From NCBI GenBank assembly GCA_009602735.1, contig WELA01001729.1, forward strand, positions 1-64,000: 64,000 bases of DNA. The letters run 5' to 3'. The stretch is from Mesotaenium endlicherianum (Eukaryota). A model generated the notes under the pieces. It worked only from the letters and a program-made list of their open reading frames with translations, made no database searches and was not told the origin of the DNA. Shown here in pieces: positions 4,302-41,667 of the stretch; within the stretch, counting starts at the first letter, position 1, and each line of letters opens with the position of its first letter. A program made the translations under genes and the position numbers.

Positions 4302-4325
4302 CTTCTTGTGCTACCAAAGTGCCTA

Positions 4326-4337
4326 GCTCCGATACCA
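4326..4337 (-). promoter_or_regulatory. Primer-binding site (tRNA-iMet type) TGGTATCGGAGC of A1
   Basis: 1 nt from the LTR end CA. Confidence 0.9.
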
Positions 4338-4338
4338 C

Positions 4339-11958: not shown

Positions 11959-11966
11959 CTTGCACC

Positions 11967-12476: not shown

Positions 12477-15386
12477 GCTATGCAGTCTAGAGGGAGAGGT
12501 GGTTACTATCGAGGTGGCTATGGAAGAGGTGGTGGTAGGACTAAGCCAAGACCAGCCTCAGCAAAATCGATTTGCTGTCATTGCTAACAGCTGGGCCACT
12601 ACAGAGAGCAGTGTCTTAGCAAGCACCTTCCAAAGGTCAAGAGAAAGGACCAGCCTTTAGAAGACAGCAACAGTCAGTAATCCAGTCTACTGATTGTGAG
12701 GATGCTAGAGATAGTGAGTTGTCACTAGCTGTCCTTGTAGCAGGTATGATGGGTTATGTTGAACTGGATTCACTATGCATGCTTGACAAAAAGATAAAGG
12801 AGACCATCAGCAACATGGATTCTCAGAGAGTGCACACTCTGGATGATCTTGTTTCACCTGATGTCCAACATTTCTTTGCTAAGTCAGGAGAACAATGCGA
12901 AAGTCAGGAAAATTAAGTCCTCCCTACTCTACTGCATTGTATGATTGCAGGTAGGAAGGTGAGGGCATTTGTTGACGGAGGGGCGTCACATACTTTTATC
13001 CATAAGGACTTAGATAAGCAGCTGAGGCTGCCTACTGTCACCCAAGGGAATAGAAAAATATTCGTTGGAGATGCCTCAAGTATCCCGGGAGGGGTTATAA
13101 CCAAGCCTATTGAGGTCCAGTTAGATTCTAGCTTTGCAGTTCTAATTGAAACGCTTACATTTGAGGTACTCAACACAAGCTTCTATAATCTCGTGCTAGG
13201 CAGGTCCTGGCTTAATAGACATCAAGCTGAAGTGTGTTGGAGCAGAGGTATAGTTAAAGTGAGAGGAGCCAGTGATGGGCAGACTAACTTGGCACCCACC
13301 AGTGCTCTTCCTCTTGTCCTGTTTGGATGGCAGATGAAGGAAAAGAAGAGGTTTCCAGGAGGATGCAAATTGCTGAATGCAATGGAGTTCATTGAAAGCT
13401 GGAACCAGAAGGAAGATAGATTGTTATGTCTGAGATACCTCCTCAACGTAAATAAGTGGTTGAGAAAAAGATGAGACCTCCGAGCACCCTACTGCTGCAA
13501 AAATTGTTGCTCGATAAACTGATGTTTTTAATATGCCTTCAGGACTGCCGTCTAAGAGAGAAGTAGATCATAGGATTGATTTAGTACCTAAAAGTCAGCG
13601 ACCTTGGCAACGCACCTATGGCTGGTCTTATATGGAAAACGAAGAGTTGAAAACGCAGATTGCAGAGCCAGAGGAAAATGATTATATATCCCCCAGTGAA
13701 TCACCTTATGGTGCACCCATCCTGTTTGTTAAGAAAAAGGATGGTACTATGCGAATGTGCGTGGGTGTCAGAGCTCTTAACGGGATTACAGTAAAGAACA
13801 ACTATGCTTTACCCAGAATTGAGAACTTGCTTGATACCGTGTCTGGTGCTAAAGTGTTTAGTGAGATAGATCTCAAAAGTGGTTATCATTAAATCAGAAT
13901 TGCTGAGGGTGATGAACACAAGACTGCCTTCCGCACACGTTATGGACACTATGGTTTGGCTAACTATCATAGGAGATTCATTCATAATTACTCTACAAAG
14001 GCCAGTACACTGATTGATCTGACTAAGAAGGACATACGGTATGTGTGGGGGGAAGAGCAGCAAGATGCCTTCCAAACCCTTAAAGATGCTCGCTTTTCTG
14101 CCCCAGTGATGGCTGTGTGACTTCAGCAAACCTGTGCAGGTGGTTACTAATGCTTTGGACTTTGCCATGGGTGCTATTTTGTTGCAGCCTGCTGACAAAA
14201 CCACAAAGGATGGTAAGGTAAAGCAGGATTGGCACCCGGTGCTGTATGAGTCCATAAAATTTAACCCAGCTGAAATCAACTATTATGTGCATGATCGAGA
14301 GCTGCTTGCTATCATTCATGTGCTCAAACAGTGGAGAGCATACGTACTTGGTAAAGCTTTTAAGGTGATTACAGATCGTCTAGCTCTGACTCACTTTCAG
14401 AAGAAGTCCAAGCTGTTGAGGAGGGAGAACCGCTGGAGCCAAATGCAAGAGCAGTTCCAAGTCCAAATTGACTACAAACCAGGGAAGTTGAATCCTGCTG
14501 ATGCACTCTCCAGAAGACCTGACATGCAAGAAAAGAACTTCAGACAGCATGCTGTAGACAAAGTGCTTTGTGCACTCACTTCACTAAAGGTGAAAAAGTC
14601 CTTCCTGGAACAAGTTAGGAAAGCCTACCTTTCTGACCCAACATTTGAGCCCAGCCCCACTGATGGTGTGTGTCCTGCTACTGCACTCGGGTATAGACTA
14701 AAGCGAGGGGTCTCGGTGACTGAAACCACTTCAGGTAGACTAAAGCTAGTCATTCCGAATAACTTGGAAATAAGGTCACCCTTCCTGAGTCAAGCACATG
14801 ACAGTTTACTGGGTGGACATTTGGGGCAGGCCATAATTGTTGGTAAACTGGCAAAACATTATCATTAATATGGGTTGCCTCCGGAGATCTTGAAATATGT
14901 AAAGTCCTGTGATCAGTGTCAGAAAAAGAAGTCTAGACACACACCACCCAGGGGGCTATTACAACCACTGCCCATCCCAGCTGGACGCGAAGAAACAATA
15001 TCCATGGACTGGGTGGTAACACTACCAAGGATTGCCAATGGGCATGATTCTATACTGGTAGTAGTGAATAAATTGATAAAAATGGTCATTTTCATCCCCA
15101 CCACTATCAAAGTAACTGCGCTCGAAATTGCGAGACAGTTCTACAACCATGTAGTATGCCCACATGGGCTACCCTCTAACATCATCTCAGACAGAGACTC
15201 AAAATTTACCTCCAAATTCTGGAGAGTTTTAATGGGGTTAATGGAAGTGAAACAGCTGCTCACCACAACAAACTACCCTCAGACTGATGGACAGACTGAA
15301 AGAACTAACCGAGTTTTGCAGGAGGTGCTCAAAGCATATATTAACCAAAAACAAGATAATTAGGATGACCTGTCGCCTCAAATTCA
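12477..15386 (+). pseudogene. pol: B1 gag end and pol (protease FVDGGASH, RT with internal deletion near 13951, RNase H, integrase)
   Basis: ORFs 12941-13474, 13533-13892, 14134-14868, 14875-15363. Confidence 0.88.
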
Positions 15387-15388
15387 CT

Positions 15389-16087
15389 CAAATAGGCGAT
15401 TAACAATTAATGAAGATCTTTATATCAGCAAGTAATCTTTATGGTATTTTCTGTTAATTGATTAAACAGCAAAAGACAACTCTCTAGCAGTGGACAATAC
15501 TCGTAAGTCAAATGGAAGTAAATTAGCCTCAATAATGCAATCAGTAGACTCCCACATAAGCAAGGCTAGGAGACAGTGCATATCAATGGCTTCTCGCCTT
15601 GGATTCAGATCCCTCTCAGTAAGCTGTACAAGAGAGTTGGCCTCGTTTTCGAATGCCGAACTCGAGGGCAATACCTGGCATATGTACATGGAATGAGTTT
15701 GCTGTTCAACAGCCAGTGCGATGGCACCGCCAACCCGGAAGTTAACCACGATGGTAGGACCTCGGTTAACCAAATCCACCGCCATCTCCTATTATCCCGA
15801 ATCGCCATCCATCCTAAGGATGTCATCTGGCCATTCATCTAGCACACCACACTTAAATGCATATCTAGGCAGTTCACTGCTACCGAGTACGGAAGGCAGC
15901 TGGCTGACAAAGAATGTGTCAGCAAGCTGACCTAGTAGACTTCAGCCTGCTGCTCCCGGCTGAGTCATTAAACTGGTAATTATATAAAGTCCAACAAGCT
16001 CAATACGAACTAAGTCGAGGAGGCTGAACTTATTTAACTATTATATATAAATGAATATTATTTTTACCAATATACTGATTCATTACA
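15389..16087 (-). repeat. Family B solo-type LTR inserted antisense in B1 integrase (one end clipped by ~18 bp)
   Basis: Matches B LTRs, ends GATTCATTACA; integrase QIQ/FAVNSAVH sequence resumes at 16088. Confidence 0.88.
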
Positions 16088-16385
16088 CCGGTCAACTGTG
16101 AGGTGCACGCGTCAACAGAATAGATTCCCTTTGAACTTAGTCTGGGTAGAGTCCCTAAGTTTCCTTTAGATGTGCTAGGGGAGTCCTTAACTCACTCTGA
16201 GGGCATTGACAATCCGGTGTCTCTCCAATTAACTCAGGAGTTTGCAAACACCCTGTCAGAAGTCCAACACAATCTGCACAAAGCCCAGGAAAAGCAACAA
16301 AATACGCTAATCAACACCGTCGAGAGCTGACATTTTCAGAGGAAGATTTGGTCAAACTGCATTCTCAACACCTTTACCTGCCTGG

Positions 16386-16885
16386 TGTAGTGATTTGAGT
16401 TATTATATATTGGTTTGCACATATTTTAATGTTTTCAAATATATTTGGAGTATTGTGTGGAGTCAAGTGTGAATAGGTACTCTAGTAACTTGGTTCATGT
16501 CCTTTGAACCTTCCAAGGCATTTTCGAAGTTAGAGGAAAGACCTAGAAGAACTCCATGTGGCAAAAGTCAAATGTGCCATTTTTAGGTCAAAAGGACATG
16601 TGTACATTATTCTAGAAAGAGGTGGCAAGTTTTGGGATGTGTTGGGTGCCAACACATCAACATACACCTTCCTAGAAATTACTTATGTAGCAAGTATATA
16701 AACAAGAGCTAGAACATAGAAAGACATTCCAGAATCACTCTTGTACTTGCCAAAATCCAGAAATATATTAACTTTCAAGAAGCCATCTCTCTTTCAAGAA
16801 GCTACCACTTGTGTTCAAAGATCCTTGTCTTGAATAGATAAAGTATTCTGTTTTACTAAGTACTTTATCTATCTGTTTCACTACA
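16386..16885 (+). repeat. 5' LTR of A2
   Basis: Direct repeat of 22562-23064, TG...CA. Confidence 0.95.
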
Positions 16886-16886
16886 G

Positions 16887-16898
16887 TGGTATCGGAGC
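16887..16898 (+). promoter_or_regulatory. PBS TGGTATCGGAGC of A2
   Basis: Adjacent to the 5' LTR. Confidence 0.92.
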
Positions 16899-16922
16899 TA
16901 GGCACTTTGGTAGCACAAGAAG

Positions 16923-18203
16923 ATGGCCGATCCTCAAGACCAACAGCAAGCTTTCGAAGGAAGCCCTTCCTCTCCAAGACACCCTCCTCCAGCGCCGATG
17001 GGAGAGCCCACTCAAGAAAATCTGCAACAACAAGAAGCACCACAAGGAGGAGCACACCCTCCTCCAGCGTCGATGGGAGAGCCTACTCAAGGAAATCTGC
17101 AACAACAAGAAGCACCACAAGGAGGAGCACCGTCAAATCCCGTGGCAGCCGCTATAGCAAAGTTGACCCCACCACAAGGAGTTCCCGCAAATGAGTGGGC
17201 AGCCTTCCTAATGACCGTCCACAACCAAGTGGGCTTGGCCACCTATGAAGCAACCGTGCAAGCGTCAAGAGAAGCTATGGCTGCCATGGTTGCCCCTATT
17301 GCGAGCAATGCTCAAAATCCAGCCCCGGCTCAAGCGCCTCCACAAGAGCCAACGAGAGCAAGGAAACTCATCAAGCCCGGCAAACCCGACACTTTCAACC
17401 CCGGGAAAGGTGCCAACCTGAATTTATGGCTCTACCAAGTGGAGACGTACCTCGCGTTCCTTGAAGTACCCGAGGAGGACTACGTTCCCTTTGCCGTTAC
17501 CTTACTTAGAGGAGCAGCAACATCATGGTGGCGTAACTATCAAGCGGCTATATATCAAGCTATGGCGCACCCCATGCTCGGCCAAGAGCCCCCACCATCA
17601 TATGCAAGATGGGCAGATTTTCGTGAGGCCCTCAAGAAGCAATTCATGCCCATCAATGCGGAGAAGATTGCCCGAGGAAAGCTCCACCATCTCAAGCAAA
17701 CGACGTCCGTTCAAGAGTATACATCCAGATTTCACGCCCTCACTCTTGAGATCCCCAACATGTCTCTCGAGGAGAAGATTGACCGTTACATCTTTGGCCT
17801 CAAACCCAAGGTGGCAAAGGAAGTGGAGTTACGCGACTTGACGGACTTCTCAAAGATCATTGAAGTGGCCCAAAAGGTGGATACCTTGGATTTCAAGCAC
17901 TCCGTGCCTTCATCTTCACGGGTACCGACGACGCGGGTGTACGCAGCCCCTTCCACATCCGAATCTGGACCCACACCCATGGAAATCGGAGTTATTAAAA
18001 GGGACCCCGCGGCTGCCCGGAAGAGTGGAAGACCCTCCAATGACACTTATGATGCAAGAAACCAGCAAGGAGTGAAAGCAAGACTCTCCCCGGCTGAAAA
18101 AGAAGCTCTCATGACGGCTGGACTATGCTTCTATTGCAAGGAAAAGGGCCATCGTGCACTTTCATGCCCCAAAAAGTTGTCAAAAAACGGACAGCGCCGG
18201 TAG
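16923..18203 (+). CDS. gag: Family A Gag, intact 426 aa
   Basis: Capsid motifs, CCHC knuckle, ATG 24 nt after the PBS. Confidence 0.95.
16980..17129 (+). repeat. 75-bp tandem duplication in gag ([25 protein letters not shown] x2)
   Basis: Direct reading; also present in A1. Confidence 0.9.
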
Positions 18204-21200
18204 GCCAGGAGCCTACCACCCCAAGACCCACTTCACGAGAAGGCAACACGCCAAGTGAGGTGGAGACCCCCGTTGAAGACGACGTTCCAGCCCCAATGAG
18301 TTTGAGAGGTTACCTTGGAGGAGAGAAGGTCCACATCTTGGTGGATAGCGGAGCTCAAGGCAACTTCATTGCTGCAGATTTCGCCACCAAGCACGGAATT
18401 ACTATGCTAACTCTTGACCACGATGAGGAGATTATGATGCCTGATGGATTCTCCTATACTACCCCTTCCAAGAAGACGTACCCCTTGGCACTCTCTATCA
18501 AGTCCTTCAAGGATAGAGTAGTGTTCTCCCCCATGCAATTGGGCAAGTACGACGTCATCCTAGGGACGCCTTGGTTGACCAAGCACAACCCCCAAGTTGA
18601 TTGGAGGACCGGTACTATCAAGATCAAGAATGACATCACTTCAAGAATCTGTATTTTGCGCGCAATCCAGAATATCCAGACCAAAGACATCGAGAAGTCG
18701 ACACACGAGATACTATTGTCCGCCCTCCAACTCAAGAGACTTGTGAGGAAGGGACACGAGCTTCTTTTGGCCTTGATCACGCCAAAAGACATCAAGAAAG
18801 ACATCGAGAGTCAAGAAGGCAGCCCCGTTCCCAAGGAGATACAAGAAGTCTTGGAGGACTACAAAAAAGTATTCTCTCCGGAATTGCCCAAGAGCTTACC
18901 CCCCAAGAGATTTGTAGACCACAAGATAGAGTTGGAGCCCGGAAGTAAGCCCATCTCTCGGCCTACGTTCAAAATGTCATACACGGAGCTAGACGAAGTC
19001 AAGAAGCAAATCAAGGAGCTACTGGAGCATGGCTTCATTCGACCTAGCAAGTCGCCATTTGGAGCCCCGGTGCTATTTGTCAAGAAGAAAGATGGTACCT
19101 TGAGGATGTGTGTGGACTATCGCGCCCTCAACAAGATCACCATCAAGAATCGATACCCGCTGCCGCGCATGGATGAGCTCATGGACCGGCTGGTTGGAGC
19201 CAAGTACTTCACGAAGATTGACTTACGGAGCGGCTACCACCAGATTCGCATCGCAGAACCGGACATAGAGAAGACGGCATTCAGGACAAGATATGGACAT
19301 TTTGAGTTCACGGTCTTGCCATTTGGACTCACCAACACGCCAGCAACTTTCATGACTATGATGAACACCATATTTCAGCCGATGTTGGACAGATTTGTGG
19401 TGGTATTCATCGATGACATCCTTATCTACAGCAAGACCCTTGAAGAGCATGCGAGACACTTGAAAGAAGTCCTTGAAGTATTGAAGCAAAACAAGCTATT
19501 TGCGAAGGAGTCAAAATGCGAGTTTGCCAAACAAGAAGTGGAGTTCCTAGGTCTCCACGTGACTGCTGATGGCATCAAGATAGACCCCAAGAAGACCACG
19601 GTGGTGGAGGAATGGCCAACCCCCACGACCAAGAAAGAACTCCAGTCATTCTTGGGATTTGCCAATTGGTACAGAAAATTCATCCAAGGCTTCTCGCACA
19701 TAGCAGCCCCCCTGACAGATCTACTCAAGAAGGACAGGCTATATACATGGACCGAGAAAGAGGAAGAGGCATTTCAAGAGTTAAAGCGAAGATTGACCAC
19801 ATCCCCGGTGCTCACACTCCCAAGTCCAAACCCAGATTGGCCCTTCCACGTCATCACCGATGCATCTTCCTATGCAATAGGAGCAATCCTGCTTCAAGAC
19901 CAAGGCAAGGGACTGCAGCCCATCGCCTACGAGTCAAGGAAGCTAAATCCAGCCGAGCAAAATTATACAACCACGGAGCGAGAGGCATTGGCGATTGTAC
20001 ATGCCTTGAAGGTTTGGCGCTGCTACGTTGAAGGACGCAAAGTACTGGTCACCACGGACCACGAGGCGTTAAAGCACCTCCAAACGCAGCCGTATCTCTC
20101 AAGGAGACAAGCAAGATGGAGCGGATACTTGCAACAATACAACATCACGATTCAGTACCAGCCCGGCAAGACAAACCCGGCTGACCCCCTCTCAAGACTG
20201 CAATTAAATGCAGTGATGGTATCCCTGAAGACAGAGCTGGAAGCTTGATTTTCAGCCGCCTATGAAAGAGACCCTTACTACAAGAACGGAGAAGCAGCCT
20301 TTAGACCCCATACAAGAAGCAAGAAGGCAATTATTGGGTGAGGCAAGATACGAGCCAGAGATGTGTTCCTAATGACATAGACCTCCGGCTCTTGCTTCTA
20401 CGAGAAGCACACGACAACCCTCTTGGAGGACACTTTGGAATCCTAAGGACCACGGGCGTTCTAGCTAGGACTTATTGTTGGCCAGGCATGTCTAAGCAAG
20501 TCAAGGAGTACTGCAGGAGCTGTGACACATGCCAAAGAATCAAGCCATCATCGCAAAAGGCGGGAGGACTCCTCCAACCACTACCAATCCCCGAAAGACA
20601 ATGGACGGACATCTCAATGGACCTTATCGTGGACTTGCCCGTGACACCTCGAGGCCATAATGCAATAGTCACGGTGGTGGACAGACTTACTAAGATGGCT
20701 CATTTTATTCCCACGACGACTAAGGCTACAGCACCATAACTTGCAAGGCTCATCGTTGACAACATCTTCCGACTCCATGGACTACCATCAAGAATTGTGT
20801 CGGATAAAGATCCAAGATTCACAAGCCATTTCTGGAAAAATCTCTTCAAGAACTTGGGTACATTGCTGAATATGTCCACTGCCTACCACCCGCAATCAGA
20901 TGGGCAAACCGAGCGTATGAATCGTACTCTAAAGACCTCTCTAAAGGCCTACGTGTCTACCCTCGAGCAAGACTGGGACATGTACTTGACCCCCCTCGAG
21001 TTTGCCTACAACAACACTACGCAGGCCTCTACCCAAGAGTCCCCATTCTTCCTCAACTATGGCTTCCATCCGACCACGCCACTGAGCTTCACGGCTGGCC
21101 TTGATGAAGTACCTGCAGCCACAGATTTTATGGAGACATTAGAAGCAGCCCTTACAGCAGCAAAGAAAGCTCTACAACAGGCACAAGATGCTCAAGCAAG

Positions 21201-21792
21201 AGTAGCAAACAGGTCAAGAAGAGAAATTACGTACAGAGCGGGTGACAACGTGTTACTATCATCCAAGAATATTTCCCTGAACAACAGGCCTGCCGGCAGC
21301 AAGTTCTCTCCCAAGTATTTGGGACCCTTCAAGATTATCCAGCAAGTCAACCCCGTTGCTTTCAAGCTAGAACTTCCCCAGACTATGCACATCGACCCCG
21401 TATTCCACGCTTCCCTCTTCAAGCCATATGTACAACCCGACAACAAGTTCCCAGGACGTGTGACAACCCCACCAGCCCCAACAATAGTGGATGATCTGTT
21501 GCAGTACGAAGTGCAAGACATAGTGGCTATGAGAAATTTCAGGAGACAGCAGCAATACTTGATCAAGTGGAAAGGATATCCAGATTCGGAGAATAGTTGG
21601 GTGGCGGCGCACTACCTTGACAAAGTTCAGAGAAAGTTGAAGCGCTTCCATGCCGCCAACCCCCATCTTGGACCAGCCCCAAGTCTCTCTGCTAGAAGCT
21701 TAAATACTTCAGGGAGGCAGCCTGCCACCATCAAGAAGCAGCAGAAGACCCTTTGGAGGCAGCCTGCAAGAACAAGAAAGAGGAAAAATTGA
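18182..21792 (+). pseudogene. pol: A2 pol (PR-RT-RH-IN-chromodomain), -1 frame to gag; premature stops at 20248 and 20739 plus a frameshift
   Basis: ORFs 18125-20248 ([24 protein letters not shown]), 20338-20739, 20797-21792 (YHPQSDGQTER, GPF, YEVQDI...YLIKWKGY...SW). Confidence 0.93.
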
Positions 21793-22417
21793 CATTAGAC
21801 ACTCTTCTCTTCTCGCAATTTCTGGAAAGAAAACTAAAACTGCTATTGGTGATAGGTCTCTGCATAGTAAATTCTGAAAAATTACCTAGCTGTAGTCCAT
21901 GAGTAGCCGGTCATTTAGAATCCACGTTTGCTCAATTTGGAGCATTGGTGAGAGAGATATGATGCTCTAAGTAGAAGGGGGTCAGGCTGCTGGCATTGTT
22001 AGGACAGAATATGCCTTCTGACATTGTGCCCTCCCCTGAACTTGGAATGCTCTGAAACTCAAGACTCTGGTAGAACATCTTGCAGCGCCCAGTTTGAGAC
22101 TTAGTTTGCAGCATTTTGAGAAATATAGAAGGACTTATGATTTTCAGAAGTTTCTGCACAGATTTGGAGGAGTGCCTACTCTCTCAGCTCTCAACAACAC
22201 TCGAGACATGAGAATGCTCTCAAATTTGGTGACCCGGTAGAGTTCTCCAACACGGTCCGTCTGGGACTCGAATTTTTAGATTTGGTGCTGTTCTGTGGCC
22301 GCTATGAATTTTTGAAATTGTGGCAAATTCTGGGCCAACTTGTACAATTTTCTTTATCATTAAGGAGTAGGCTAGCCAATAAGGTCACACCACCTACGAC
22401 CTTGCCTAGTCTACCTT

Positions 22418-22523
22418 ACATGTGTAGCACCTGACTTGGCGCCTTTGACTAGTCCTCTCCACATGTGTGGCATCTGACTTGAAACTGTTGACTAGTTTGC
22501 TCCACATGTGTAAGACCTGACTG
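22418..22523 (+). repeat. 43-bp degenerate tandem repeat (~2.5 copies, ACATGTGT...CTGACT) upstream of the A2 PPT
   Basis: ACATGTG at 22418, 22461 and 22504. Confidence 0.8.
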
Positions 22524-22561
22524 GTCGCGCTGAGACGTCGCTTTTTCTATCGGGGGGGTGA

Positions 22562-23064
22562 TGTAGTGATTTGAGTTATTATATATTAGTTTGCATATAT
22601 TTTAATGTTTTCAAATATATTTGGAGTAGTATTGTGTGGATTCAAGTGTGAATAGGTACTCTAGTGACTTGGTTCATGTCCTTTGAACCTTCGAAGGCAT
22701 TTTCGAAGTTAGAGGAAAGACCTAGAAGAACTCCATGTGGCAAAAGTCAAATGTGCCATTTTTAGGTCAAAAGGACATGTGTACATTATTCTAGAAAGAG
22801 GTGGCAAGTTTTGGGATGTGTTGGGTGCCAACACATCAACATACACTTTCCTAGAAATTACTTATGTAGCAAGTATATAAACAAGAGCTAGAACATAGAA
22901 AGACATGGGAGAATCACTCTTGTACTTGCCAAAATCCAGAAATATATTAACTTTCAAGAAGCCATCTCTCTTTCAAGAAGCTACCACTTGTGTTCAAAGA
23001 TCCTTGTCTTGAATAGATAAAGTATTCTGTTTTACTAAGTACTTTATCTATCTGTTTCACTACA
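22562..23064 (+). repeat. 3' LTR of A2
   Basis: Follows G7 PPT; direct repeat of the 5' LTR. Confidence 0.95.
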
Positions 23065-23069
23065 CCTAA

Positions 23070-23476
23070 TGTGGTCAAGAAAAAGCTTGGTCCGATCTAG
23101 GTCGGTCCATATTCGATGGTGCGCTGTGTCGGTCGGAATGCTTACAAACTGACCATGTCAGCGGAATACAAGGGTCACCTTTTAATGTCTCCTTCCTGGA
23201 AGCATACATCAAAGGTGATACAGTGTTCATAGGTCGGTTACCTTCCAACCGGGACCGGTCCCCGCTGTCAGGGACGATGACCCTGAGGATTATGAGGTCA
23301 AGGAAAGTTTAGACGCTTGCTCTGTCTGTCGATCATCTAAATATGTCATGAAATACCTGGTCAGATGGAAGGGTTACGATGCCTTTGGGGATACTTGGGA
23401 ACTTAAGGACCATTTGACCAATGCCAAAGGGGCGTTGAAACGGTTCCACCTTCGGGCGACTGGCGCACCTTCCTAA
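23070..23476 (+). pseudogene. pol: B1 integrase C-terminus and chromodomain
   Basis: VVKKKLGP...GPY...YEV...YLVRWKGY...TWE...RFHLRA, homologous to 35631-36014. Confidence 0.85.
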
Positions 23477-23884
23477 CTGTCATTTCACTTGGCATAGGAC
23501 GGTGACAGGAGGTCCTGTCTCCATTTAAGTTGGGGCAATGTACAAGTAAAGGACAATTAGTGTGCGAGAAAGGGAGAGTTATTGACAGTAAAGTTTCAGC
23601 ATAGTGACAGATGTGACAGCCAGGCCCACATTAAGCTAAGTTGGCGGGTGCCCACCACTCGGAAGGATGAAGGGACCAGAACATCACCAAATCACTTAAC
23701 CTACCCTGCAAGCACAATCATTCGTTTATTCTCATTGTACTGTAGCTCCGTTAACTCCTAGTAACCACCCTATGAGGTAAAAGAGAGCAAACCTACTATA
23801 CTGATACGAACTTACTTCTCTTCTTGCAACTCCTGTGACAAAGATTGAGATCCTACTAACTTGTGCCATGGTTATATGTGCAGG

Positions 23885-25500
23885 ATGGCTCCCACCACAC
23901 AAACGGAAGACTGAAAGCGCAAGGTAGAAGAAGCCAGGTAGACAATGGAGCAATACCAGAAAGAGCTTGCGGCAACGTCCCTCACCAGGAGAGAACAAGA
24001 AAGGGTTCGCAGACAACAAGAGGCGGCAGAAGAAGCACAGAGGAAGAAGGAGCAGGAGGCGGATAATCTCAGGAAAGTTGAGGAGGAGAGACAGAGGAAA
24101 CAACAAGAAGAAGCGGCGGCAGCAGAGGAGGAGAGAAGGAAGAAGGCTGAAGCTGAGAAGCAGAAGAGCCTGGCCACTTATGGATATACTGTGGTGGGTG
24201 GCCAAACCTTTGATAACCTGAAGGAAGCATTACTAGCAGCCCAGGAGATCAACAAGGTGGAATAGAAAACAACGCTACAGAGACAAGGATCTGAACTTAT
24301 GGATAAGTACATTGAGACACACACTGGTATGGTCGTCTACGAAGATTATGCCAAAATGGTGGGGTATACAACAGAGCAGGCACGGTTCCTTGCAGAGGAC
24401 TCGGAAGATAAGCCAATACCAGTGCCTGGCATAGTGGGGAATGAGAGACTCATCAGGATGGTCAGCATGCAGCCCGATAGCTTTAAAGATGCAGTATTTT
24501 ACCTGAACTACTGCCAGCCTATGATGAAGTTGAGAAGAGGAGCTGGGAGTACTTGGCCAGGGAAATAGGGCAGCAGATGTTCTCCCCCCACTGGTTTCCT
24601 TGTAAGTTGAAAAAGGCTGAGCACGGGCCACAGTATTACGAGCAGCCCACAAACTGGAGGTGGATGACCGTCACTAACAGAAAGCAGGAGTGTGACCGGG
24701 CCCACTCAGATGACTTCCACTATGGGCTAGACGGCTACCTCATCCTACCACCTCACATTGCCCCTTGGGACCCCAGGCTGAATGGATGCCTAAGTAATAT
24801 GAATGCTAAGACCAAGGAGCACAGGAGGAGGGAAAGAGACTATTTCTCTAAGGGAAAGCATGCCTTTGTCAAATGGGCGAAGAATGTAGGGAGGATCGAT
24901 ATCAGCAGGCTGAAGGCCAAGCAACCCCCAGCTCGTCCTAAGAAAGGGCGGTCAGTAGATTTTTCCATGTCGACCAGGGAGCAAAATGACTTAGTGGACG
25001 AGACCCCTACCCTTTTAGAGGAGGAAAATGAAGAGGATGAGGAAGAGGGACAGGGCAGAGGAGAAGCATCAGGAGTTGGTACTCAGGAGACCTTAGGGCA
25101 GGCAGAAGCAGGAACTCTTAGGGCGCCAAGATCAGGTGTATGGAATGTGATCCCTACTATAGAGGCAACAGGAATCCGCACTCGTTCTTTTAGCCTACCT
25201 GCCCAAGCAAGGGAAGAAGCTGATCTAACTGTTCATGGCAGCAGAGAAAGGCAAAAATCCCCAGAGGACAGGGGTACCAAAAGAAGTAGCCAGAGGTATG
25301 CTGGCCACCTCCTTCAGTTAAGAACATGTACCTCTTGCCAATCAATTTCAGCATCCTACCGGAATGTCGGTGTATGTGGGCATTAACGCCCAGGTTGTTG
25401 AAGGGTAGGCTACCATCCTTCGTTCTCCTCAAAGCCCAATTTTAGAACAAACAGGGTTCTTTAGAATGCCAGCTGACAGAGCTAGAGTGCTGTCCAGATC
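23885..25500 (+). pseudogene. Family B accessory ORF, divergent version (stops/frameshifts; 3' end approximate)
   Basis: ORFs 23945-24265, 24299-24568, 24553-25386 align in order with 33744-35357 (DKYIE, DYA.VGYT, DSFKD, WRWMT, LPPHIA.WDPRL.G, FSKGKHA..KWA). Confidence 0.85.
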
Positions 25501-25784
25501 TAGGTCCGAATCTCACTCTTCTGATCCTGGAGCCCCAAGAACAACCCCCTAAATATCAGAACCATCCTCCAGTCAAGCCTTGCTGGAGATCTCTCTGTTT
25601 GCACCCCACAACAGAAGTGGACTGAGGGTGGAGGAGACAATTCCCTGTCACTAGTGATCCCCACAGCTATGCAACAGTGTTGAAGCAAGAGGCAGGTGGT
25701 GGGGGATTAGTTCTGTTAGTTCCCTGACCAGATAATTCTACAGCTTAATATTGTCGAGGCGATAAAAATTTAAGTTAGAGGGAT

Positions 25785-26502
25785 TGTAATGAATCAGTAT
25801 ATTGGTAGATATAATATTCATTTGACTATATAGTTAGTTAAGTTCAGCCTGCTGAACCTTAGTCAATATTCCGTCTGCTGGACTTTATATACTTATCAAT
25901 TTAATGACTCAGCCGAGAGCAGCAGGCTGAAGTCAATTTAGATCAGCTTGCTGATGCATTCTTTGAGAGCCAGCTGACTTCCGTACTCGGTAGCAGCGAG
26001 CTGCCTAGATATGCATCTAAGTGTGATATGCTAGATGAATGGCCAGATGACATCCTTGGGATGGATGGCGATTCGGGATGATGGGAGATGGTGGTGGGTT
26101 TGGTTAACCGAGGTCCTACCAACGTGGTTAACTCCCAGGTAGGCGGTGGCATCGCACTTGCCGTTGAACAGTAAACTCATTCCATGTACATATGCTAGGT
26201 ATTGCTCTCGAGTTCGGCATTCGGAAACGAGGCCAACTCTCTTGTACAGCTTACGGAGGGAGATCTGAATGCAAGGTGAGAAGCCATTGATACGCACTGT
26301 CTTCTAGCCTTGCTTATGTATGACTTTACTGATCGCATTATTGATGCTAGTTTACTTGCATTTGACTTGCGAGCATTATCCACTGCTAGTGTGTTGTCTT
26401 TTCCTGTTTAATAAGTTTACAGAAAATACCATAAAGACTACTCGCTGATATAAGGATCTCTGTTAATTTTAAATCGCCTATTTGGTAAGTCAATTCATTT
26501 CA
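25785..26502 (+). repeat. 3' LTR of B1
   Basis: TGTAATGAATC...ATTCATTTCA after PPT AAGTTAGAGGGAT. Confidence 0.92.
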
Positions 26503-28989: not shown

Positions 28990-29160
28990 ATCCCTCCAAC
29001 TTAACAGGTTGTCGCCTTGACAACACTAACACTGAGTACATGGTTTTCTTCAACTCAAAGTATTGACCTCCCTCCCACCACCTCTTGCTCTAACACTGAT
29101 GCCTAACTGTGGGAATCACTAGTAACAGAGTGCTGTCTCTCCGCCCTCAATCTACTGCCC

Positions 29161-30837
29161 TTATGAGGGAGATGTTCCTGGGGCTCTACGGTTAGGGGAG
29201 CGAGATCGGAAGCCAGACCTCCTCTTTCTGTCTTGGATTCTCCTGAAGCTTGGGGGCTCCGAGTAAGGGGAATCAAGGGGAGAACGCAGTAACTGGGCTA
29301 TATCCTTGTGCACAGTTTGAAAATGAAGGGAGGCAGCCTTCTTCTGGGCATCCCTCAAACTGACAGGTACATATATCGGCATCCCAGAAGGAAGTTGCAT
29401 GACATGAGCCAAGGGCACATGTCCTCTCTACGAGGAAGATGCTGACAGGCCTCTGGCTATCTCTCTAGCAGCCCTCCTGTCTGCCCTGTCTGACTGGGTC
29501 TTTGCGCCTGCGGATGGGCTCTGTCCTCTGGCAGTTCTAACCAAGTGATATCTTCCTTTTCAGCAAGCTGGTGCAGGGCTATGTCTGCCCTGGCTAACCC
29601 AGTCTTCTCCATTACAGGGGATGTGGCAGGTGTCTGGGTCACAGCGGGGCTAGTGTCCTCTTCCTCGCCTTCCTCCTCTTCTTCCTCTAACTCCTCTTCT
29701 TCCCTCGGCTCCTCTGAGACTGCTAGTCTCCTCTGTCAGCTGCTCTAGCTCTTCCCGAGAAAAAGAATACCCCACTGACCTTCCCCTTTTGGGTGCTGGT
29801 AGGGGCTGTTGAGACCTGACCGCATACTGGTCTTTCTCTCCCTGCTTGCTTGCCCATTTGGCATAAGCGTGCTTCCCTTTAGAGAATGACTCTTGGGCCC
29901 TGCTCCTGTCCTCCTGCATTTCTTGACTCATGCAGTCTCTTACTCCATCCAATCTTGGGTCCCAAGCTGCAATGTGAGGAGGCAACACTATGTTCCCCTG
30001 TAGGTCTATTAGGAAATCTTCCTCCCCTGCCCTGTCATTTTGCTGGTCCCTCATGTTGATGGTCATCCACCGCCAATCGATGGGTTTCTGGAAGAAGGCA
30101 GGGTCTGTCCTTTTCAGCGTACAAGGGTACCAGTGCCCTGCGAAGTCCAGCTGAGTGGTTTCCCTGGCCAAGAATTCCCAGCTCCTTCTCTCCACCTCAT
30201 TATACATGGCCTTGAACCTGTTATGGGATGTGGAGTCCTTAAAGCTGTCCGCGTCCATGGGGATCATCATGATGACCCTATCTTTCCCCCAGATACCCGG
30301 AATTGATACAGCTCCTTCCTCATTCACTTGCGCCATTGCCTTGGCCTCTCTGACCGTACATCCTACCATCCTGGCATAATCGTGGTAGAGGAGGACGCCT
30401 GTGCTGACCTCTGTATACTTGTCAAAGTTTTTGGATGTCTCCCCTTCCCTCTGCAGGATGTCCTTCTGCGACTCACTGCGACTGCTGTGGGCATACTTGA
30501 AGGCCTCCTCCAGTAGATCAAAGCCCTTGCCCAGCACTGTGTAGCGGTAGCTGGTGATTCTCCTTTGTTCTTCTTTAGCCTGCTGCTTCCGCCTCTCCTC
30601 AGCTTGCCTCTCCTCTGCCTTCTTGGCCTCCACTGCAGCTTATCTGTCCAGTTCTTCCTGCCTCAACCTGGCCTGTTCCTCCTCCTCCTCCTTCTTCTGT
30701 GCCTCCCGCTGTTGTTGGAGTCGTGGTGATTCCCGAGCGGAGATGGAGGATAATTCCTTGTCGCCACGGAATTGCAAGTATTATGCATGTGCCTTTTCCG
30801 CTCTTCTCTTCCTCTTAAGTTCCGACTTCTGAGTCAT
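29161..30837 (-). pseudogene. Family B accessory ORF, B2 copy (two early stops, frameshifts)
   Basis: ORFs 29650-30633, 29457-29642, 29161-29418 homologous to 33744-35357. Confidence 0.88.
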
Positions 30838-32880: not shown

Positions 32881-33601
32881 TGAAATGAATCGACTTACCA
32901 AATAGGCGATTAACAATCAATAAAGATCTTTATATTAGCAAGTAATCTTTATGGTGTTTTCCGTTAACTGGTTAAACGGCAAGGACAACACACTAGCAGT
33001 GAATAATACTCGTAAGTCAAATGCGAGTAAACTAGCATCAATAATGCAAATCACTAAACTCATACATAAGCAAGGTTAGAAGACAGTGCGTATCAATGGC
33101 TTCTCGCCTTGGATTTAGATCGCTCTCAGTAAGCTGTACCAGAGAGTTGGCCTCGTTTTTAAATGCCGAACTCGAGAGCAATGCCTAGCATATGTACATG
33201 GAATGAGTTTACTGTTCAGCGGTCAGTGCGATGGCACCGCCTACCCGGGAGTTAACCACGTTGGTAGGACCTCGGTCAACCAAATCCACTGCCATCTCCC
33301 ATCATCCCGAATCGCCATCCATCATAGGGATGTCATTTGGCCATTCATCTAGCATACCACTCTTAGATGCATATCGAGGCAGTTCGCTGCTACCGAGTAC
33401 GGAAGTCAGCTGGCTGTCAAAGAATGTGTCAGCAAGCTGACTTAAGGTGACCTCAGCCTGCTACTTCCGGCCTGAGTCATTAAACTGATATTAAATATGA
33501 AGTCCAGCAGACTGATCATTAACTAGAGTTCAGCAGGCTGAACTTATTTAACTATATTCTTTATAAGAATATTATGTCAACCAGTATACTGATTCATTAC
33601 A
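32881..33601 (-). repeat. 3' LTR of B3
   Basis: Direct repeat of 40947-41667. Confidence 0.95.
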
Positions 33602-33743
33602 ATCCCTCCAACTTATCATGTTGTCGCCTCGGCAACACTAACACTAATAACAGCGTGCTATCCCTTCCAACCCTATCCTACTGCCATACGGAGGGAGATG
33701 TTCCTGAGGCTCTATACTCAGGGGAGCCAGACCTCCTCCTGTC

Positions 33744-35348
33744 TTAGGGTCTTCTGAAGCCTGTCAGAAAGGGAGGTTCCGTGTAAGGACCTCGCGAAGA
33801 ACGCAGTAACTGGGCTGTTTCCTCCTGCACAGTCTGGAGGGAGGCCGCCTTCTCCTGGGCAGCCCTCAAACTGACAGGTACGTATATCGGCATCCCAGAA
33901 GGATGTTGCATGACATGAGCCAAGGGTACATGCCTTCTCTGCGAGGGAGATGCTGGTAGGCCTCTGGCTATTTTTCGAGCAGCCCTCGTGTCTGCCCTGT
34001 CTGACTGGGTCTCCTTGCCTGGAGAGGGGCTGTGTCCTCTGGCAGTTCCCAGCCAAGTGATATCCTCCTCTTGAGCGAGTTGCTGCGGGGCCAACCCCGT
34101 CTTCTCCCTTATAGGGGATGTGGCAGGTGTCAGGATCACGGCGGGGCTATTGTGTTCCTCCTCGCCTTCCTCCTCGTCTTCCTCCAACTCCTCCTCCTCG
34201 CCGTCCCCGGGTTCCTTTGAGACTTCTGGGGTCTCCTCTGTCAGCTGCTCCACCTCTTCCCGAGAAAAAAAATATCCTACTGACCTTCCCCTATTGGGTG
34301 CTGGTGGGGGTTGCTGAGTCCGGACCACATAGAGGTCCTTTTCCCCCTGCTTACTTGCCCATTTGGCATAAGCGTGCTTCCCTTTGGAGAATGACTCTCG
34401 GGCCCTGCTTCTGTCCCCCTGCATTTCTTGGCTCATGCAGTCTCTGACTCCATCTAATCTTGGGTCCCAAGCCGCAATGTGTGGGGGCAATACTATGTTC
34501 CCCTTTAAGTCTGTCAGGAAATTCTCATCCGTCGCCCTGTCATTCTGCTTGTCCCTCATGTTGATGGTCATCCACCGCCAATCAGTGGGCTTTTGGAAGA
34601 AGGCAGCGTCTGTCTTTTTAAAAGTACAAGGGTACCAGTGCCCTGCAAAGTCCAGCTGACTGGTTTCCCTGGCCAAGAATTTCCAGCTCCTCCTCTTCAC
34701 CTCATTGTTCATGGCCTTGAACCTGTTGTGGGGTGTTGAGTCCTTGAAGCTGTCCGCGTCCATGGGGATCATCCTGATGACCCTATCTTCCCCCCAGATA
34801 CCAGGAATCGAGACAGTCCCTGCTTCGTTCACTTGGGTCATTGCCTTGGCCTCTCCGATTGTATATCCTACCGTCCTGGCGTAATCGTGGTAGAGGAGGA
34901 GCCCTGTGCCGACCTCTATATACTTGTCAAAGTTTTTGGATGTCTCCCCTTCCTTCTGGAGGATTTCCTTCTGCGACTCACTGCGACTTCTCTGGGCATA
35001 CTTGAAGGCCTCCTCCAGTAGATCAAAGCCCTTGCCCAGCATCGTGTAGCGGTAGCTGCTGATTCTCCTCTGTTCTTCTTCTTCAGCCTGCTGCTTTCGG
35101 TTCTCCTGAGCTTGCCTCTCCTCCTCTGCTTTCTTGGCCTCCTCTGCAGCTTTTCTGTCCATTTCTTCCTGCCTCAGTATGGCCAGTTCCTCCTCCTCCT
35201 TCTTCTCCTGTGCCTCCCGCTGTTGTTGGAGTCGTTGTGATTCCCGAGCGGAGATGGAAGATGATTCGATGTCTCCACGAAATTGCAAGTATTTTGCATG
35301 TGCCTCTTCCGCCCTCCTCTTCCATTTGAGTTCCGACTTTTGAGTCAT
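33744..35348 (-). CDS. Family B accessory protein of unknown function (~534 aa from first ATG; true C-terminus uncertain)
   Basis: Open 537-codon frame between pol stop and PPT, same strand as pol; E/K/Q/R coiled coil, globular aromatic-rich core, acidic tract; homologues in three other copies. Confidence 0.85.
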   Translation of the reverse strand: MTQKSELKWKRRAEEAHAKYLQFRGDIESSSISARESQRLQQQREAQEKKEEEELAILRQEEMDRKAAEEAKKAEEERQAQENRKQQAEEEEQRRISSYRYTMLGKGFDLLEEAFKYAQRSRSESQKEILQKEGETSKNFDKYIEVGTGLLLYHDYARTVGYTIGEAKAMTQVNEAGTVSIPGIWGEDRVIRMIPMDADSFKDSTPHNRFKAMNNEVKRRSWKFLARETSQLDFAGHWYPCTFKKTDAAFFQKPTDWRWMTINMRDKQNDRATDENFLTDLKGNIVLPPHIAAWDPRLDGVRDCMSQEMQGDRSRARESFSKGKHAYAKWASKQGEKDLYVVRTQQPPPAPNRGRSVGYFFSREEVEQLTEETPEVSKEPGDGEEEELEEDEEEGEEEHNSPAVILTPATSPIREKTGLAPQQLAQEEDITWLGTARGHSPSPGKETQSDRADTRAARKIARGLPASPSQRRHVPLAHVMQHPSGMPIYVPVSLRAAQEKAASLQTVQEETAQLLRSSRGPYTEPPFLTGFRRP

Positions 35349-35630
35349 CCTGCTCAATCATAAACACAATGTATTAGTGAAGTCATGATATTTTGCCGCT
35401 ACTGGGTGCCCTTGATGAAGAGGAAGAGTTCCTAGTGTGGAATACCTGGTGTGAGTGAATATAAGGGAAAATTGAGTTGGAGAGTGAGTGTGACCGCAGG
35501 TTGAGTGTGTAATATGGTGATCAAAGAATACCACAGAATACCACTTCCTCCAACTTAATTTTAAAGGTGGGCTGCCTGTCACAACTGTCACTAACTGTCG
35601 CATCCCCCTCCGTGTCAACTGAAATGACTG

Positions 35631-38600
35631 TTAGAAAGGTGCCCCAGCCGCCCGAAGGTGGAACCGTTTCAACGCCCCTTTGGCATTGGTCAGCTGGTCT
35701 TTAAATTCCCAAGTGTCCCCAGAGGCATCGTAACCCTTCCATCGGATGAGGTACTTCATGACATATTTAGACGATCGACGGACCGAGCGAGCGTCTAAAA
35801 TCTCATCGACCTCATACTCCTCAGGATTGCCGTCCCGGACAGCGGGGACCGGTCCCAATTGGACAGGTAACCGCACTGTGAACAATGTATCACCTTTGAT
35901 GTATGGTTCCACGAAGGAGACATTAAAGACCGGGTGACCCTTACAGTCAGCTGACATGTTCAGTTTGTAAGCATTCTGACCGACACGACGTACCACCGAA
36001 TATGGACCGACCATACAGGGCCAAGCTTTTTCTTAACCACACCAGGGAGGTACAGGTGCTGAGAATGCAGTTTGACTAAATCGCCCTTAGAAAATGTCAG
36101 CTCCCGACAGTGTTGATTAGCGTATTTTTGTTGGTTTTCTTGGGCTTTGTGCAGGTTTTGTTGGACTTCTGACAGGGTGTCAGCAAACTCCTGAGTTAAC
36201 TGGAGGGAGACCGGGTTGTCAATCCCTTCAGGGTCAGTTAAAGACTCCCCCAGTACATCTAAAGGAGACTTAGGGACTCTACCCAGGCTGAGATCGAAAG
36301 GAGTCTTGCCCGTTGACGTGTGCACCGCACTGTTGACCGCAAACTGAATTTGAGGCAACACGTCATCCCAATTATCTTGTTTATGATTAATATATGCCCT
36401 CAGCACCTCCTGCGGAACTCGATTAGTTCTTTCAATCTGCCCATCAGTTTGAAGGTGGTTTGCTGTGCTGAGCAGCTGTTTGACTCCCATTAACCCCATT
36501 AAAGCTCTCCAGTACTTAGAGGTGAATTTTGGTCTCTATCTGAGATAATATTAGAAGGTAGCCCTTGTTGGCATACTACATGGTTGTAAAACTGTCTCGC
36601 TGTTTCGAGTGCAGTTACTTTGACAGTTGTGGGGATGAAAATGACCATTTTTGTCAGTTTATCCGCGACTACCAATATCGAATCATGCCCATTGGCAGTT
36701 CGTGGCAGTGTGACCACCCAGTCCATGGATATAGTTTCCCAGCGGCCAACTGGGATGGGCAGTGGTTGCAAGAGACCTCCGGGTGGTGTGTGTCGAGACT
36801 TATTTCTCTGACACTGGTCACAGGACTTGACATATTTCAAGACCTCCCGGGGTAACCCCTCCCAATGATAATGTTTTGCCAGTTTGCCAACAGTTTTGGC
36901 CTGCCCCAAATGTCCACCCAGGAGACTGTCATGAGCTTGACTCAGTAAGAGAGACCTTATTTCCAAGTTATTAGGAATGACCAGCTTCAGCCTGCATGAA
37001 GTGGTTTCAGTCACCCAGACCCCTCCCTTAAGCTTATACCCGAGTGCAGTAGCACGACACACACCAGTTGTGGGGCTGAGCTCAAATGTTGGGTCAGAAA
37101 GGTAGGCTTTCCTAAGTTGTTCTAGGAAGGACTTTTTCACCTTTAGTGAAGTGAGTGCACACAGGACTTTATCTACAGCGTGCTGACTAAAGTTCCTTTC
37201 TTGCAAGACAGGTCTTCTAGAGAGTGAATCAGCAGGATTCAACTTTCCTTGTTTGTAGTCGATCTGGACTTGGAACTGCTCCAGCATCTGGCTCCAGCGG
37301 TTCTCCCTCCTCGACAGCTTGGACTTCTTCTGAAAGTGGGTCAGAGCTAGACGATCGGTAATCAACTTAAAGGCTTTACCATGTAAGAATGCTCTCCATT
37401 GTTTGAGTACATGAATGATAGCTAGCAGCTCTTTATCATGCACTGAGTAATTAATCTCCGCTGGATTAAATTTCATAGACTCATACAACACAGGATGCCA
37501 CTCCTGCCGTACCTTACCATCCTTTGTGGTTTTGTCAGCAGGCTGCAACAAAATAGCACCCATGGCAAAGTCAGAGGCATCAGTAACCACCTGCACCGGT
37601 TTGCTGGGGTCATACACGGCTAGCACTGGGGCGAAACAAAGGGCATCTTTAAGGGCCTGGAAGGCAGCCTGCTGGTCTTCCCCCCACACATACCCAATGT
37701 CTTTCTTAGTAAGGTCAGTCAGTTTACTGGCCTTTGTGGAATAATTATCAATAAATCTCCTATAGTAGTTAGCCAACCCGAGGAAGGATCTGACTTCAGA
37801 GACGAACTGTGGTACTGGCCAGTCCCGTATGGTCTGGACTTTCTTAGGATCCACACTGATGCCCTCTTTACTGACAACGTGGCCTAAGAATTCAATACTT
37901 TCCTTCAAGAAATCACACTTGCTCATTTTAGCATATCAGTGATTTTTCCGCACAGTGTCCAGGACTGTTTTTAAGTGTCCAGTGTGCTGAGCTTCATCTT
38001 TAGAGAAAATTAAAATATCATCCAGGAAAACTTGCACAAACTTATCCAAATAAGGTCTGAAAATGTCATTCATAGCACCCATGAAGGTAGCCGGAGCATT
38101 AGTCAGTCCAAATGGCATCACGTTGAAGTCATAGTGTCCATAACGTGTGCGGAAGGCTGTCTTGTGTTCATCTCCCTCAGCAATTCTGATTTGATGATAA
38201 CCACTCTTGAGATCTATCTTACTGAAAACCTTAGCTGCAGACAGGGTATCAAGCAAGTCCTTGATTTTGGGTAAAGCATACTTGTTCTTTACTGAATTCT
38301 GTTCAGGGCTCTGTAATCCACACATATTCGCATACTGCCATCCTTTTTCTTAACAAATAGGATGGGTGCGTCGTACGGTGATTTACTGGGAGAAATATAA
38401 CCATTTTCCTCCAGCTCTGCAATCTGTGTTTTAACTCCTCACTCTCCAAATAAGACAAGCCATACGTGCGTTGCCAAGGTGGCTATTTACCCGGTAATAA
38501 ATCAATCCGATGATCTACTTCCCTCTTAGCGGGAAGTCCTGGAGGCATATTAAATACATCCGTGTACTGAGCAACAATTTTTGCAGCAGTAGGGTGCTCC

Positions 38601-39437
38601 GGAGGGTTTACCTTTTTTCTCAACCACTTCTTCAGGTTGAGGAGGTACCTCTCTTAGCAGCAGACAGAACATTCTGTCTTCCTTCTGGTTCCAGCTTTTG
38701 ACGAACTCCATTGCATTCAGCAACTTGCATCCTTCTGGAAGCCTCTTCTTTTCCTTCATTTGCCATCCACACAGGACAAGAGGAAGAGCACTGGTGGGTG
38801 CCAAGTCAGTCTGCCCATCACTGGCTCCTCTCACTTTAACTGTACCTCTGCTCCAACACACTTCAGCTTGATGTCTATTAAGCCAGGACCTGCCTAGCAC
38901 GAGATCATAAAAGCCAGTGTTGAGTACCTCAAATGTAAGCGTTTCAGTTAGAACTGCAATGCCAGAACCTAACTGGACCTCAATAGGCTTGGTTATAACT
39001 CCTCCCGGGATACTTGAGGCATCTCCAAGGAATATTTTTCTATTCCCTTGGGTGACAGTAGGCAGCCTTAGCCGCTTAACTAAGTCCTTGTGGATTTAAG
39101 TATGTGACGCCCCTCCATCAACAAATGCCCTCACCTTTCTACCTGCAATCATGCAATGCAGTAGGATAGGGGGGATTGTCATTTCCTGACTTTCGCATTG
39201 TTCTCCTGACTTAGCAAATAAATGTTGGACATCAGGTGGAACAAGAGCATCCAGAGTGTGCACTCTCTGGACGTCTATATTACTGATGGTCTCCTTTATC
39301 TGTTTGTCAGGCATGCATAGTGAATCCAGTTCAGCAGGACCCATAATACCTGCTACGAGGGCAGCTAGTGACGACTCACTATCTCTAGCATCCTCACAGT
39401 CAGTAGACTGGATTACTGACTGTTGCTGTCTTTTAAA
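35631..39437 (-). pseudogene. pol: B3 pol (PR, RT, RH, IN, chromodomain) with several frameshifts/stops
   Basis: ORFs 39096-39344, 38550-38900, 37936-38325 (FLDDILI), 36499-37926, 35960-36499, 35631-36014. Confidence 0.92.
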
Positions 39438-40912: not shown

Positions 40913-40933
40913 ACAAAGAAGACTACGATAACT

Positions 40934-40945
40934 GCTCCGATACCA
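40934..40945 (-). promoter_or_regulatory. PBS TGGTATCGGAGC of B3
   Basis: 1 nt from the 5' LTR end. Confidence 0.92.
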
Positions 40946-40946
40946 C

Positions 40947-41667
40947 TGAAATGAATCGACTTACCACATAGGCGATTAACAATTAATAAAGATTTTTATT
41001 GCAGCAAGTAATCTTTATGGTATTTTTCGTTAACTGGTTAAACGGCAAGGACAACACACTAGCAGTGAATAATACTCGTAAGTCAAATGCGAGTAAACTA
41101 GCATCAATAATGCAAATCAGTAAACTCATACATAAGCAAGGTTAGAAGACAGTGCGTATCAATGGCTTCTCGCCTTGGATTCAGATTGCTCTCAGTAAGC
41201 TGTACCAGAGAGTTCGCCTCGTTTTCGAATGCCGAACTCGAGAGCAATGCCTAGCATATGTACATGGAATGAGTTTACTGTTCAACGGTCAGTGCGATGG
41301 CACCGCCTACCCGGGAGTTAACCACGTTGGTAGGACCTCGGTTAACCAAATCCACCGCCATCTCCTATCATCCCGAATAGCCATCCATCATAGGGATGTC
41401 ATCTGGCCATTCATCTAGCATACCACACTTAGATGCATATTGAGGCAGTTCGCTGCTACCGAGTACGGAAGTCAGCTGGCTATCAAAGAATGTGTCAGCA
41501 AGCTGACTTAAGGTGATCTCAGCCTGCTACTTCCGGGCTGAGTCATTAAACTGATATTAAATATGAAGTCCAGCAGACTGATCATTAACTAGAGTTCAGC
41601 AGGCTGAACTTATTTAACTATATTACTTAAACAAATATTATAACAACCAGTGTATTGATTCATTACA
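40947..41667 (-). repeat. 5' LTR of B3
   Basis: TGTAATGAATC...GATTCATTTCA termini on minus strand. Confidence 0.95.

Follow-up and report, generated by a model that had tools for sequence, protein, structure and literature searches.

The 64-kb stretch of DNA analysed here (the window) contains LTR retrotransposons nested in one another, and one of the families, family B, raises the question of how two deeply diverged versions of a single accessory gene came to lie on similar backbones. The original prediction, made for the copy B1, offered two answers: long-term purifying selection on the encoded protein together with modular exchange between subfamilies, or divergence driven by conflict with the host.

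Family B Is a Chromovirus with an Orphan ORF between pol and the 3' LTR

Family B belongs to the Ty3/gypsy chromoviruses and has an orphan sense ORF after pol and before the 3' LTR, and a long ORF of this kind was present in all four copies that retain their 3' end (B1, B2, B3, and B5; Table 1). The domain order in the ORFs of B3 and B5 was gag, PR, RT, RH, and IN. Pfam matches were obtained to RVT_1, RT_RNaseH, Integrase_H2C2, and SH3_Tf2-1, and gag and PR, to which the scanned family-B pieces gave no Pfam match, were called by eye. A chromodomain was detected at the C-terminus of the B5 integrase (PF00385, E 2.8e-8), and B1 and B3 contain the same region, in which Y, W, and Y (by eye) occupy what we take to be the cage positions. 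The complete copy B3 contains the PBS TGGTATCGGAGC, presumably a tRNA-Met-type match. According to the accessible part of PMC6317226, the only plants with this cage state are algae and the non-seed groups, and the Tcn1 clade is self-priming without a tRNA PBS, from which B3 differs in having one. From the cage state, the host of family B would probably be an alga or a non-seed plant. The best relatives of the family-B pol showed 38-44% identity, the only named match being a Closterium protein (38%). Part of the sequence of the B3 3' region was present in four organisms.

Table 1. Positions in the window of the family-B features discussed and of the elements nested in B1.
Feature	Position	Strand	Remarks
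B1 gag end, PR, RT (part deleted), RH, IN N-terminus	12477..15386	+	decayed; 5' end lost
Family-B LTR inside B1 integrase	15389..16087	-	last 19 nt missing; no TSD
B1 integrase, middle piece	16089..16391	+	
Family-A chromovirus nested in B1 integrase	16385..23064	+	LTRs identical at 491/501; no accessory ORF
B1 pol end: IN SH3 region, chromodomain, stop	23070..23476	+	
Degenerate PPT-like copy, then TGTA, behind short hairpin	23525..23542	+	by eye
B1 internal copy of 3' polypurine tract (11/12)	23637..23648	+	left edge of diverged block against B3
Branch-point-like TACTAAC and acceptor-like CAG/G just before ATG	23854..23884	+	spacing as in B3
B1 accessory ORF, diverged allele, pseudogene	23885..25552	+	at least 4 stops, 2 frameshifts
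Conserved core: HWxPC, WRWMT, LPPHIAxWDPRL, FSKGKHA, PxxGRSV	24155..25005	+	45% aa identity to B3
C-terminal conserved island HVPLA..QHP.GM..YV	25325..25378	+	
B1 true PPT	25771..25784	+	right edge of diverged block
B1 3' LTR, TG...CA	25785..26502	+	88-89% identical to six other B LTRs
B2 accessory ORF, B3-type, with stops	29180..30837	-	3' end approximate
B3, complete element	32881..41667	-	LTRs 95.3% identical; 5-bp TSD GCTGT; PBS; PPT; TG...CA
B3 accessory ORF	33744..35348	-	open, 534 aa
B3 internal PPT copy	35546..35557	-	
Donor-like G/GTAAGT, 19 nt before end of B3 5' LTR	40959..40965	-	
B5 accessory ORF, B3-type	55690..57353	-	two early stops common to B2; 3' end approximate

B1 Carries a Diverged and Broken Allele of the Accessory ORF

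B1 spans 12477-26502 (+) and is split by an antisense family-B LTR and a 6.7-kb family-A element, and its pieces are in register with B3. The antisense LTR (15389-16087) stops exactly before the donor-like GTAAGT, and a few target bases are gone.

The start codon of the B1 accessory ORF, the pol stop, and the C-terminal HVPL island were located at the predicted positions. When the 534-aa B3 protein was compared with B1 by tblastn, identities of 41% (aa 10-204) and 37% (aa 215-461) were obtained with a combined E of 1e-82, and of 36% (aa 454-533) with E 3e-7. The homology expected from end to end was thus borne out, but the alignment runs only across breaks: the B1 ORF, which reaches about 25552, is interrupted by in-frame stops (at 23912, 23939, 24263, and 25406) and by frameshifts near 24500-24520 and 25290-25325, and its state as a pseudogene had been overlooked. 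The damage to B1 pol is comparable; after its insertion, B1 would have undergone neutral decay, pol and ORF alike. Over 263-264 codons of the core, B1 was 45-46% identical to the other copies, close to the 40-45% first estimated by eye, and six of the nine Trp residues of B3 are kept. The backbone proved as similar as had been claimed, with B1 pol 84-87% identical to the family copies and the LTR 88-89%.

The stop of the B3 ORF lies about 20 codons short of the end found in B1, B2, and B5. B2 (28270-32881) and B5 (54861-59394) share 98-99% identity, and their stops as well, over a stretch that starts in pol and ends halfway through the accessory ORF, where they diverge; the break lies at about B3 position 34300, and the 3' end and LTR of B5 are nearer to B3, so that B5 switches partner within the accessory ORF. 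This pattern is likely to reflect chromosomal duplication or conversion, and because of the shared stops and the high identity B2 and B5 count as one sample. The family is also mosaic elsewhere, B1 being nearer to B2/B5 in RH-IN and nearer to B4/B6 in gag.

Silent Sites of the B1 Accessory ORF Are Saturated

In the ORF core, the comparison of B1 with B2, B3, and B5 gave a pS of 0.71-0.73, which is saturated, and a dN of 0.43-0.44. The pol dS of the same pairs was 0.20-0.38 in RH-IN, 0.29-0.38 in IN-chromodomain, 0.39-0.51 in RT, and 0.10 in PR. Between B3 and B2 or B5, the ORF was pol-like (dS 0.33-0.35, dN 0.07). The four-fold degenerate sites were also compared, with short overlaps between reference ORFs counted twice in the pol counts. 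B1 differed from B3 at 48 of 76 sites in the ORF vs 102 of 416 in gag-pol (p 2e-10), and from B5 at 50 of 78 vs 68 of 378 (p 2e-15), whereas the proportions were alike between B3 and B2 (34/153 vs 49/249, p 0.61) and between B3 and B5 (36/185 vs 85/497, p 0.50). Modular exchange, the first of the two proposed answers, is therefore supported by silent sites that are saturated in the B1 ORF and reach only 0.10-0.51 in pol. Since the B1 allele is saturated and the B3-B2 ORF is pol-like, rapid evolution was rejected. B1 is an old allele joined to a young backbone, and the allele coalesces far deeper than its flanks.

The dN/dS of the ORF was at most 0.16-0.19, or about 0.2, and net positive selection on the ORF was rejected. 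The identity between B1 and B3 at codon positions 1, 2, and 3 was 0.60, 0.70, and 0.43 in the ORF vs 0.92, 0.90, and 0.79 in RH-IN. The long purifying selection proposed for the accessory protein, which acted on both allele types, was thus upheld by both the low ratio and the order of the codon positions, the second being best kept and the third worst.

In trees built from native DNA stretches, the B1 branch had a length of 0.82 for the ORF vs 0.07-0.08 for pol. In the RH-IN tree with outgroups, a placement of B1 outside a group formed by the remaining B copies, as their sister, was not rejected (p-AU 0.24), and the LTR clade test (p-AU 1e-4) carries no evidence on B1, as it is driven by a solo LTR nesting among B3/B5. 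The comparison of silent divergence and trees proposed with the original prediction thus found unlike dS in ORF and pol; the incongruence of the trees appears to lie in branch length, topological conflict among the copies in the window being unproven.

The Diverged Block Lies between Two Polypurine Tracts

The DNA identity of B1 to B2, B3, and B5 fell from 0.87 at the pol end to 0.62-0.64 in the block and returned to 0.88 in the LTR; shuffled DNA scored in this way gave 0.58, and the B3-B2 identity was about 0.75-0.95 throughout. The diverged block is therefore real, but its left edge, which had been placed right after the pol stop, is a zone that extends to the internal PPT copy: the change-point was at 23486 against B2/B5 and at 23655 against B3, and 74-87% identity persists at 23600-23650. 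The right edge was mapped to 25700-25779, in agreement with the predicted return of similarity near the PPT, and in the comparison with B2 a shoulder of 70-80% begins at about 25500.

A search for the 12-mer of the 3' PPT with at most one mismatch returned 12 matches vs 0.31 expected, comprising the four true PPTs, six matches just after pol, and two in family-A pol. The internal copy lies 70-160 nt past the pol stop in all four copies, and B2 and B5 contain a second one. The diverged block of B1 has its internal copy of the tract on the left and the true PPT on the right. The former might serve as another plus-strand start, mark where the element ended before it gained the gene, or simply offer the last homology available for a template switch.

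Proposed Origin of the B1 Chimera

Taken together, we consider it likely that B1 combines an anciently diverged 3' gene with a recently shared pol/LTR backbone, probably acquired as one block by two RT template switches near the PPT copies. RNAs of two B lineages would have been co-packaged, and RT would have changed templates once within the conserved end of pol and again in the PPT/LTR, the crossovers being confined to the flanks because the block is too diverged for internal recombination. As for the mechanism (RT switch vs genomic conversion), template switching would be the most likely. Template-switch mosaics arising by copy-choice between co-packaged RNAs are described for Ty1 and ONSEN in the accessible part of PMC6894440. 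Within the window, the B1-type block is a single, broken copy, and no donor lineage was seen there.

Contig depth, which is not a copy number, was summed for the B3-type block (6 bins) and for gag-pol (17 bins) at 88% likeness in two runs from different organisms. The ratio of block to gag-pol was 0.29 in run X1 and 0.19 in run X5, and the two depth ranges did not overlap. This deficit fits a situation in which most copies carry another block or none.

As the main alternative, the same chimera might have been made in the chromosome by ectopic gene conversion or unequal recombination of inserted copies, either by entry of a distant relative's block into B1 or by replacement of its pol and LTR. 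In that case B1 would represent no transposing subfamily but a hybrid that arose once. The nest is dense, and the shared stops and 98-99% identity of B2 and B5 up to about 34300 point to duplication or conversion in it. Nevertheless, we regard a chromosomal origin as improbable, since the edges of the B1 block lie at reverse-transcription landmarks and the depth deficit of the B3-type block, seen in both organisms, points to many copies being different in this region.

The other proposed answer, rapid evolution of the accessory protein in the B1 lineage under host conflict and without recombination, would account for an amino acid identity of 45% vs 80-85% in pol, and the pol tree allows B1 as a sister lineage. 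Anti-silencing arms races of transposable elements have been published, and VANC binds sequences of its own family specifically and causes demethylation. However, such evolution would lift dN and not dS, yet the silent sites are saturated, which largely refutes it; the untranslated flanks, which it would have spared, are like the silent sites scrambled to the same extent as the protein, the dN/dS is low, and the B3-B2 ORF, where it should also be visible, shows no acceleration, its dN of 0.07 equalling that of pol. Host-conflict-driven divergence did not withstand these results and is very improbable.

Local hypermutation, long decay of the B1 3' part, or a low-complexity alignment artefact, as might be suspected from a pseudogene with an E/K/R/Q-rich N-terminus, is hardly credible, because the non-repetitive core aligns at E 1e-82, Trp codons are retained, second codon positions are better conserved than third (which refutes it), the B1-B3 substitutions in the ORF spread over all 12 change types with no dominant class, and B1 pol is similarly broken yet 84-87% identical.

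Splice-like Motifs at the LTR and the Start Codon

As a weaker step of the template-switch scenario, the ORF may be read from a spliced subgenomic RNA that joins a donor in the last part of the 5' LTR to an acceptor at the ATG. All six full-length LTRs end in G/GTAAGT followed by 13 nt. In an ungapped, ATG-anchored comparison of B1 and B3, ACTAA was at equal distance and GCAGG immediately 5' of the ATG, the flank being otherwise near background. Both acceptor-side motifs were absent from B2 and B5. The pair of motifs would predict a message spliced from the LTR donor to the acceptor at the ATG. No spliced reads over B3 were detected in the poly-A runs X23 and X24, which gave 274 and 389 reads on the whole of B3 and an ORF depth of 0-3.3, which is too thin. 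Spliced messages are typical for the ORF3s of bdelloid LTR retrotransposons in the accessible part of PMC5408684, and the env-like RNA of Bagy2 is spliced (PMC7264820).

The poly-A reads pile on the LTR in both directions (32881 and 41231-41528), with a recurring flank at the LTR end in 39 and 58 reads, which suggests that an LTR copy elsewhere is transcribed together with host sequence.

The Accessory Protein

The accessory protein has an E/K/R/Q-rich N-terminus and a 280-aa core in which HWxPC, WRWMT, LPPHIAxWDPRL, and FSKGKHA are invariant. Its further parts are a basic motif, PxxGR, a tract of 51% acidic residues, and the C-terminal island. By composition, the N-terminus appears coiled-coil-like. 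No transmembrane segment was found, the maximal 19-residue hydropathy being 0.65 in B3 and 0.59 in the B1 pieces, and an env or env-like ORF was rejected for this reason. The predicted product is thus a soluble, membrane-free protein in which the putative coiled coil would be followed by a globular core, the basic motif, and the acidic tract.

None of the four accessory proteins matched a Pfam family at E 0.01, and the extra ORF of Retand/Ogre/Athila (Transposase_28, plant mobile domain, Athila ORF-1) was rejected as a candidate given the absence of Pfam matches and the chromodomain of the carrier. No match was found to PHROGs (0 of 3 accessory proteins) or PDB sequences, and none of 1044 candidates from a set of 5.8 billion proteins was homologous (lengths 293-935 only). 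A profile search of 1.84 billion representatives yielded a single match (E 4e-4), which was a tandem-repeat protein and was discarded. The ESM Atlas gave no match at 0.9 or above; its SPOK2_N cluster (0.85, 142 shared features) was at chance level. VANC-like anti-silencing proteins showed no sequence match. Metagenomes were scanned by protein (136 stretches, 0 confirmed) and by the PPT-LTR motif (0). With AlphaFold mean pLDDT values of 40 and 46 and no Foldseek match under E 6, no fold is claimed.

The accessory protein of Grande shows nuclear localisation (PMC7264820; accessible part of PMC11963269). By analogy with it and from the composition, the family-B protein may tentatively be regarded as a soluble nuclear trans-acting regulator or anti-silencing factor, a role to which we give somewhat less than even weight.

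Comparison with Known Systems

The extra ORFs of plant elements, named eORF-3'F (Neumann 2019, accessible part of PMC6317226) and aORF-3S (Vicient and Casacuberta 2020, PMC7264820), resemble the family-B ORF in being long, in sense orientation 3' of pol, and without a database homologue. In the accessible parts of these sources they are carried by SIRE and Athila/Ogre/Tat, whereas the family-B carrier is a chromovirus and its protein has no membrane segment. Family B further differs in presenting two homologous alleles of 45% identity on near-identical backbones, which makes the alternative of fast evolution or separate acquisition directly testable. To this open question of Neumann et al., the present results add a third answer: under long purifying selection, the rate of evolution of the ORF does not exceed that of pol, and its hypervariable look stems from the transfer of old alleles from one backbone to another. 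Family B also provides an orphan protein family whose invariant motifs are well defined.

Env swapping in endogenous retroviruses (accessible part of PMC10536682) is similar in that the history of pol is not shared by the module located between it and the 3' LTR, and Ty1 and ONSEN (PMC6894440, in part) likewise have mosaic copies. In family B, however, the swapped gene is not env, and the partner blocks are near-random in DNA, so that the conserved flanks alone are used. The ORF3s of bdelloid elements are also non-env modules gained and lost, but in the accessible part of PMC5408684 they are unrelated captured enzymes or env and family-specific, whereas in family B a single orphan gene exists in two alleles. 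The additional PPT copy of family B recalls the central PPT of retroviruses and Ty1, but it does not lie within pol; it follows pol and borders the accessory gene. As far as the accessible part of PMC5371799 goes, no central PPT is known in Ty3. In the literature searched, which covered few subscription papers, no paper was found that describes a chromovirus whose 3' ORF had its alleles swapped. The PPT-bounded block, the acceptor-like motif before the ATG in both alleles, and the B3-type depth deficit are new here.

A wider reading, which we hold to be rather unlikely, is that family B maintains, in balanced polymorphism and on a single backbone that recombines freely, several ancient, functionally distinct alleles of the orphan gene, with a purpose-like cassette bounded by PPTs and splicing from LTR to ATG. 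If it were true, this chromovirus would rotate interchangeable counter-defence modules, as retroviruses swap envelopes.

Other Elements in the Window

The protease region (38550-39095 and homologous stretches) had a dS of 0.04-0.24 in all B pairs vs mostly 0.15-0.5 elsewhere, and no overlapping ORF common to the copies was found in it; a constraint at the RNA level or a recent sweep may lie behind the low dS. A B-like fragment of the gag N-terminus (+, 53951-54664) adjoins an inverted gag copy.

A third gypsy family (about 5550-12476, -) truncates the 5' end of B1 and is itself interrupted at about 7690-11960 by a 4-kb insert, rich in GC and repeated at its ends, which is DNA-transposon-like by eye; the 314-aa ORF of this insert at 9675 had no Pfam match. 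The family-A chromovirus is present in two copies (493-4818 and 16385-23064) that are in opposite orientation, 97% identical, and without the accessory ORF. A Ty1/copia element at about 44866-50100, with long ORFs and few stops, is nested in a B-family gag region.
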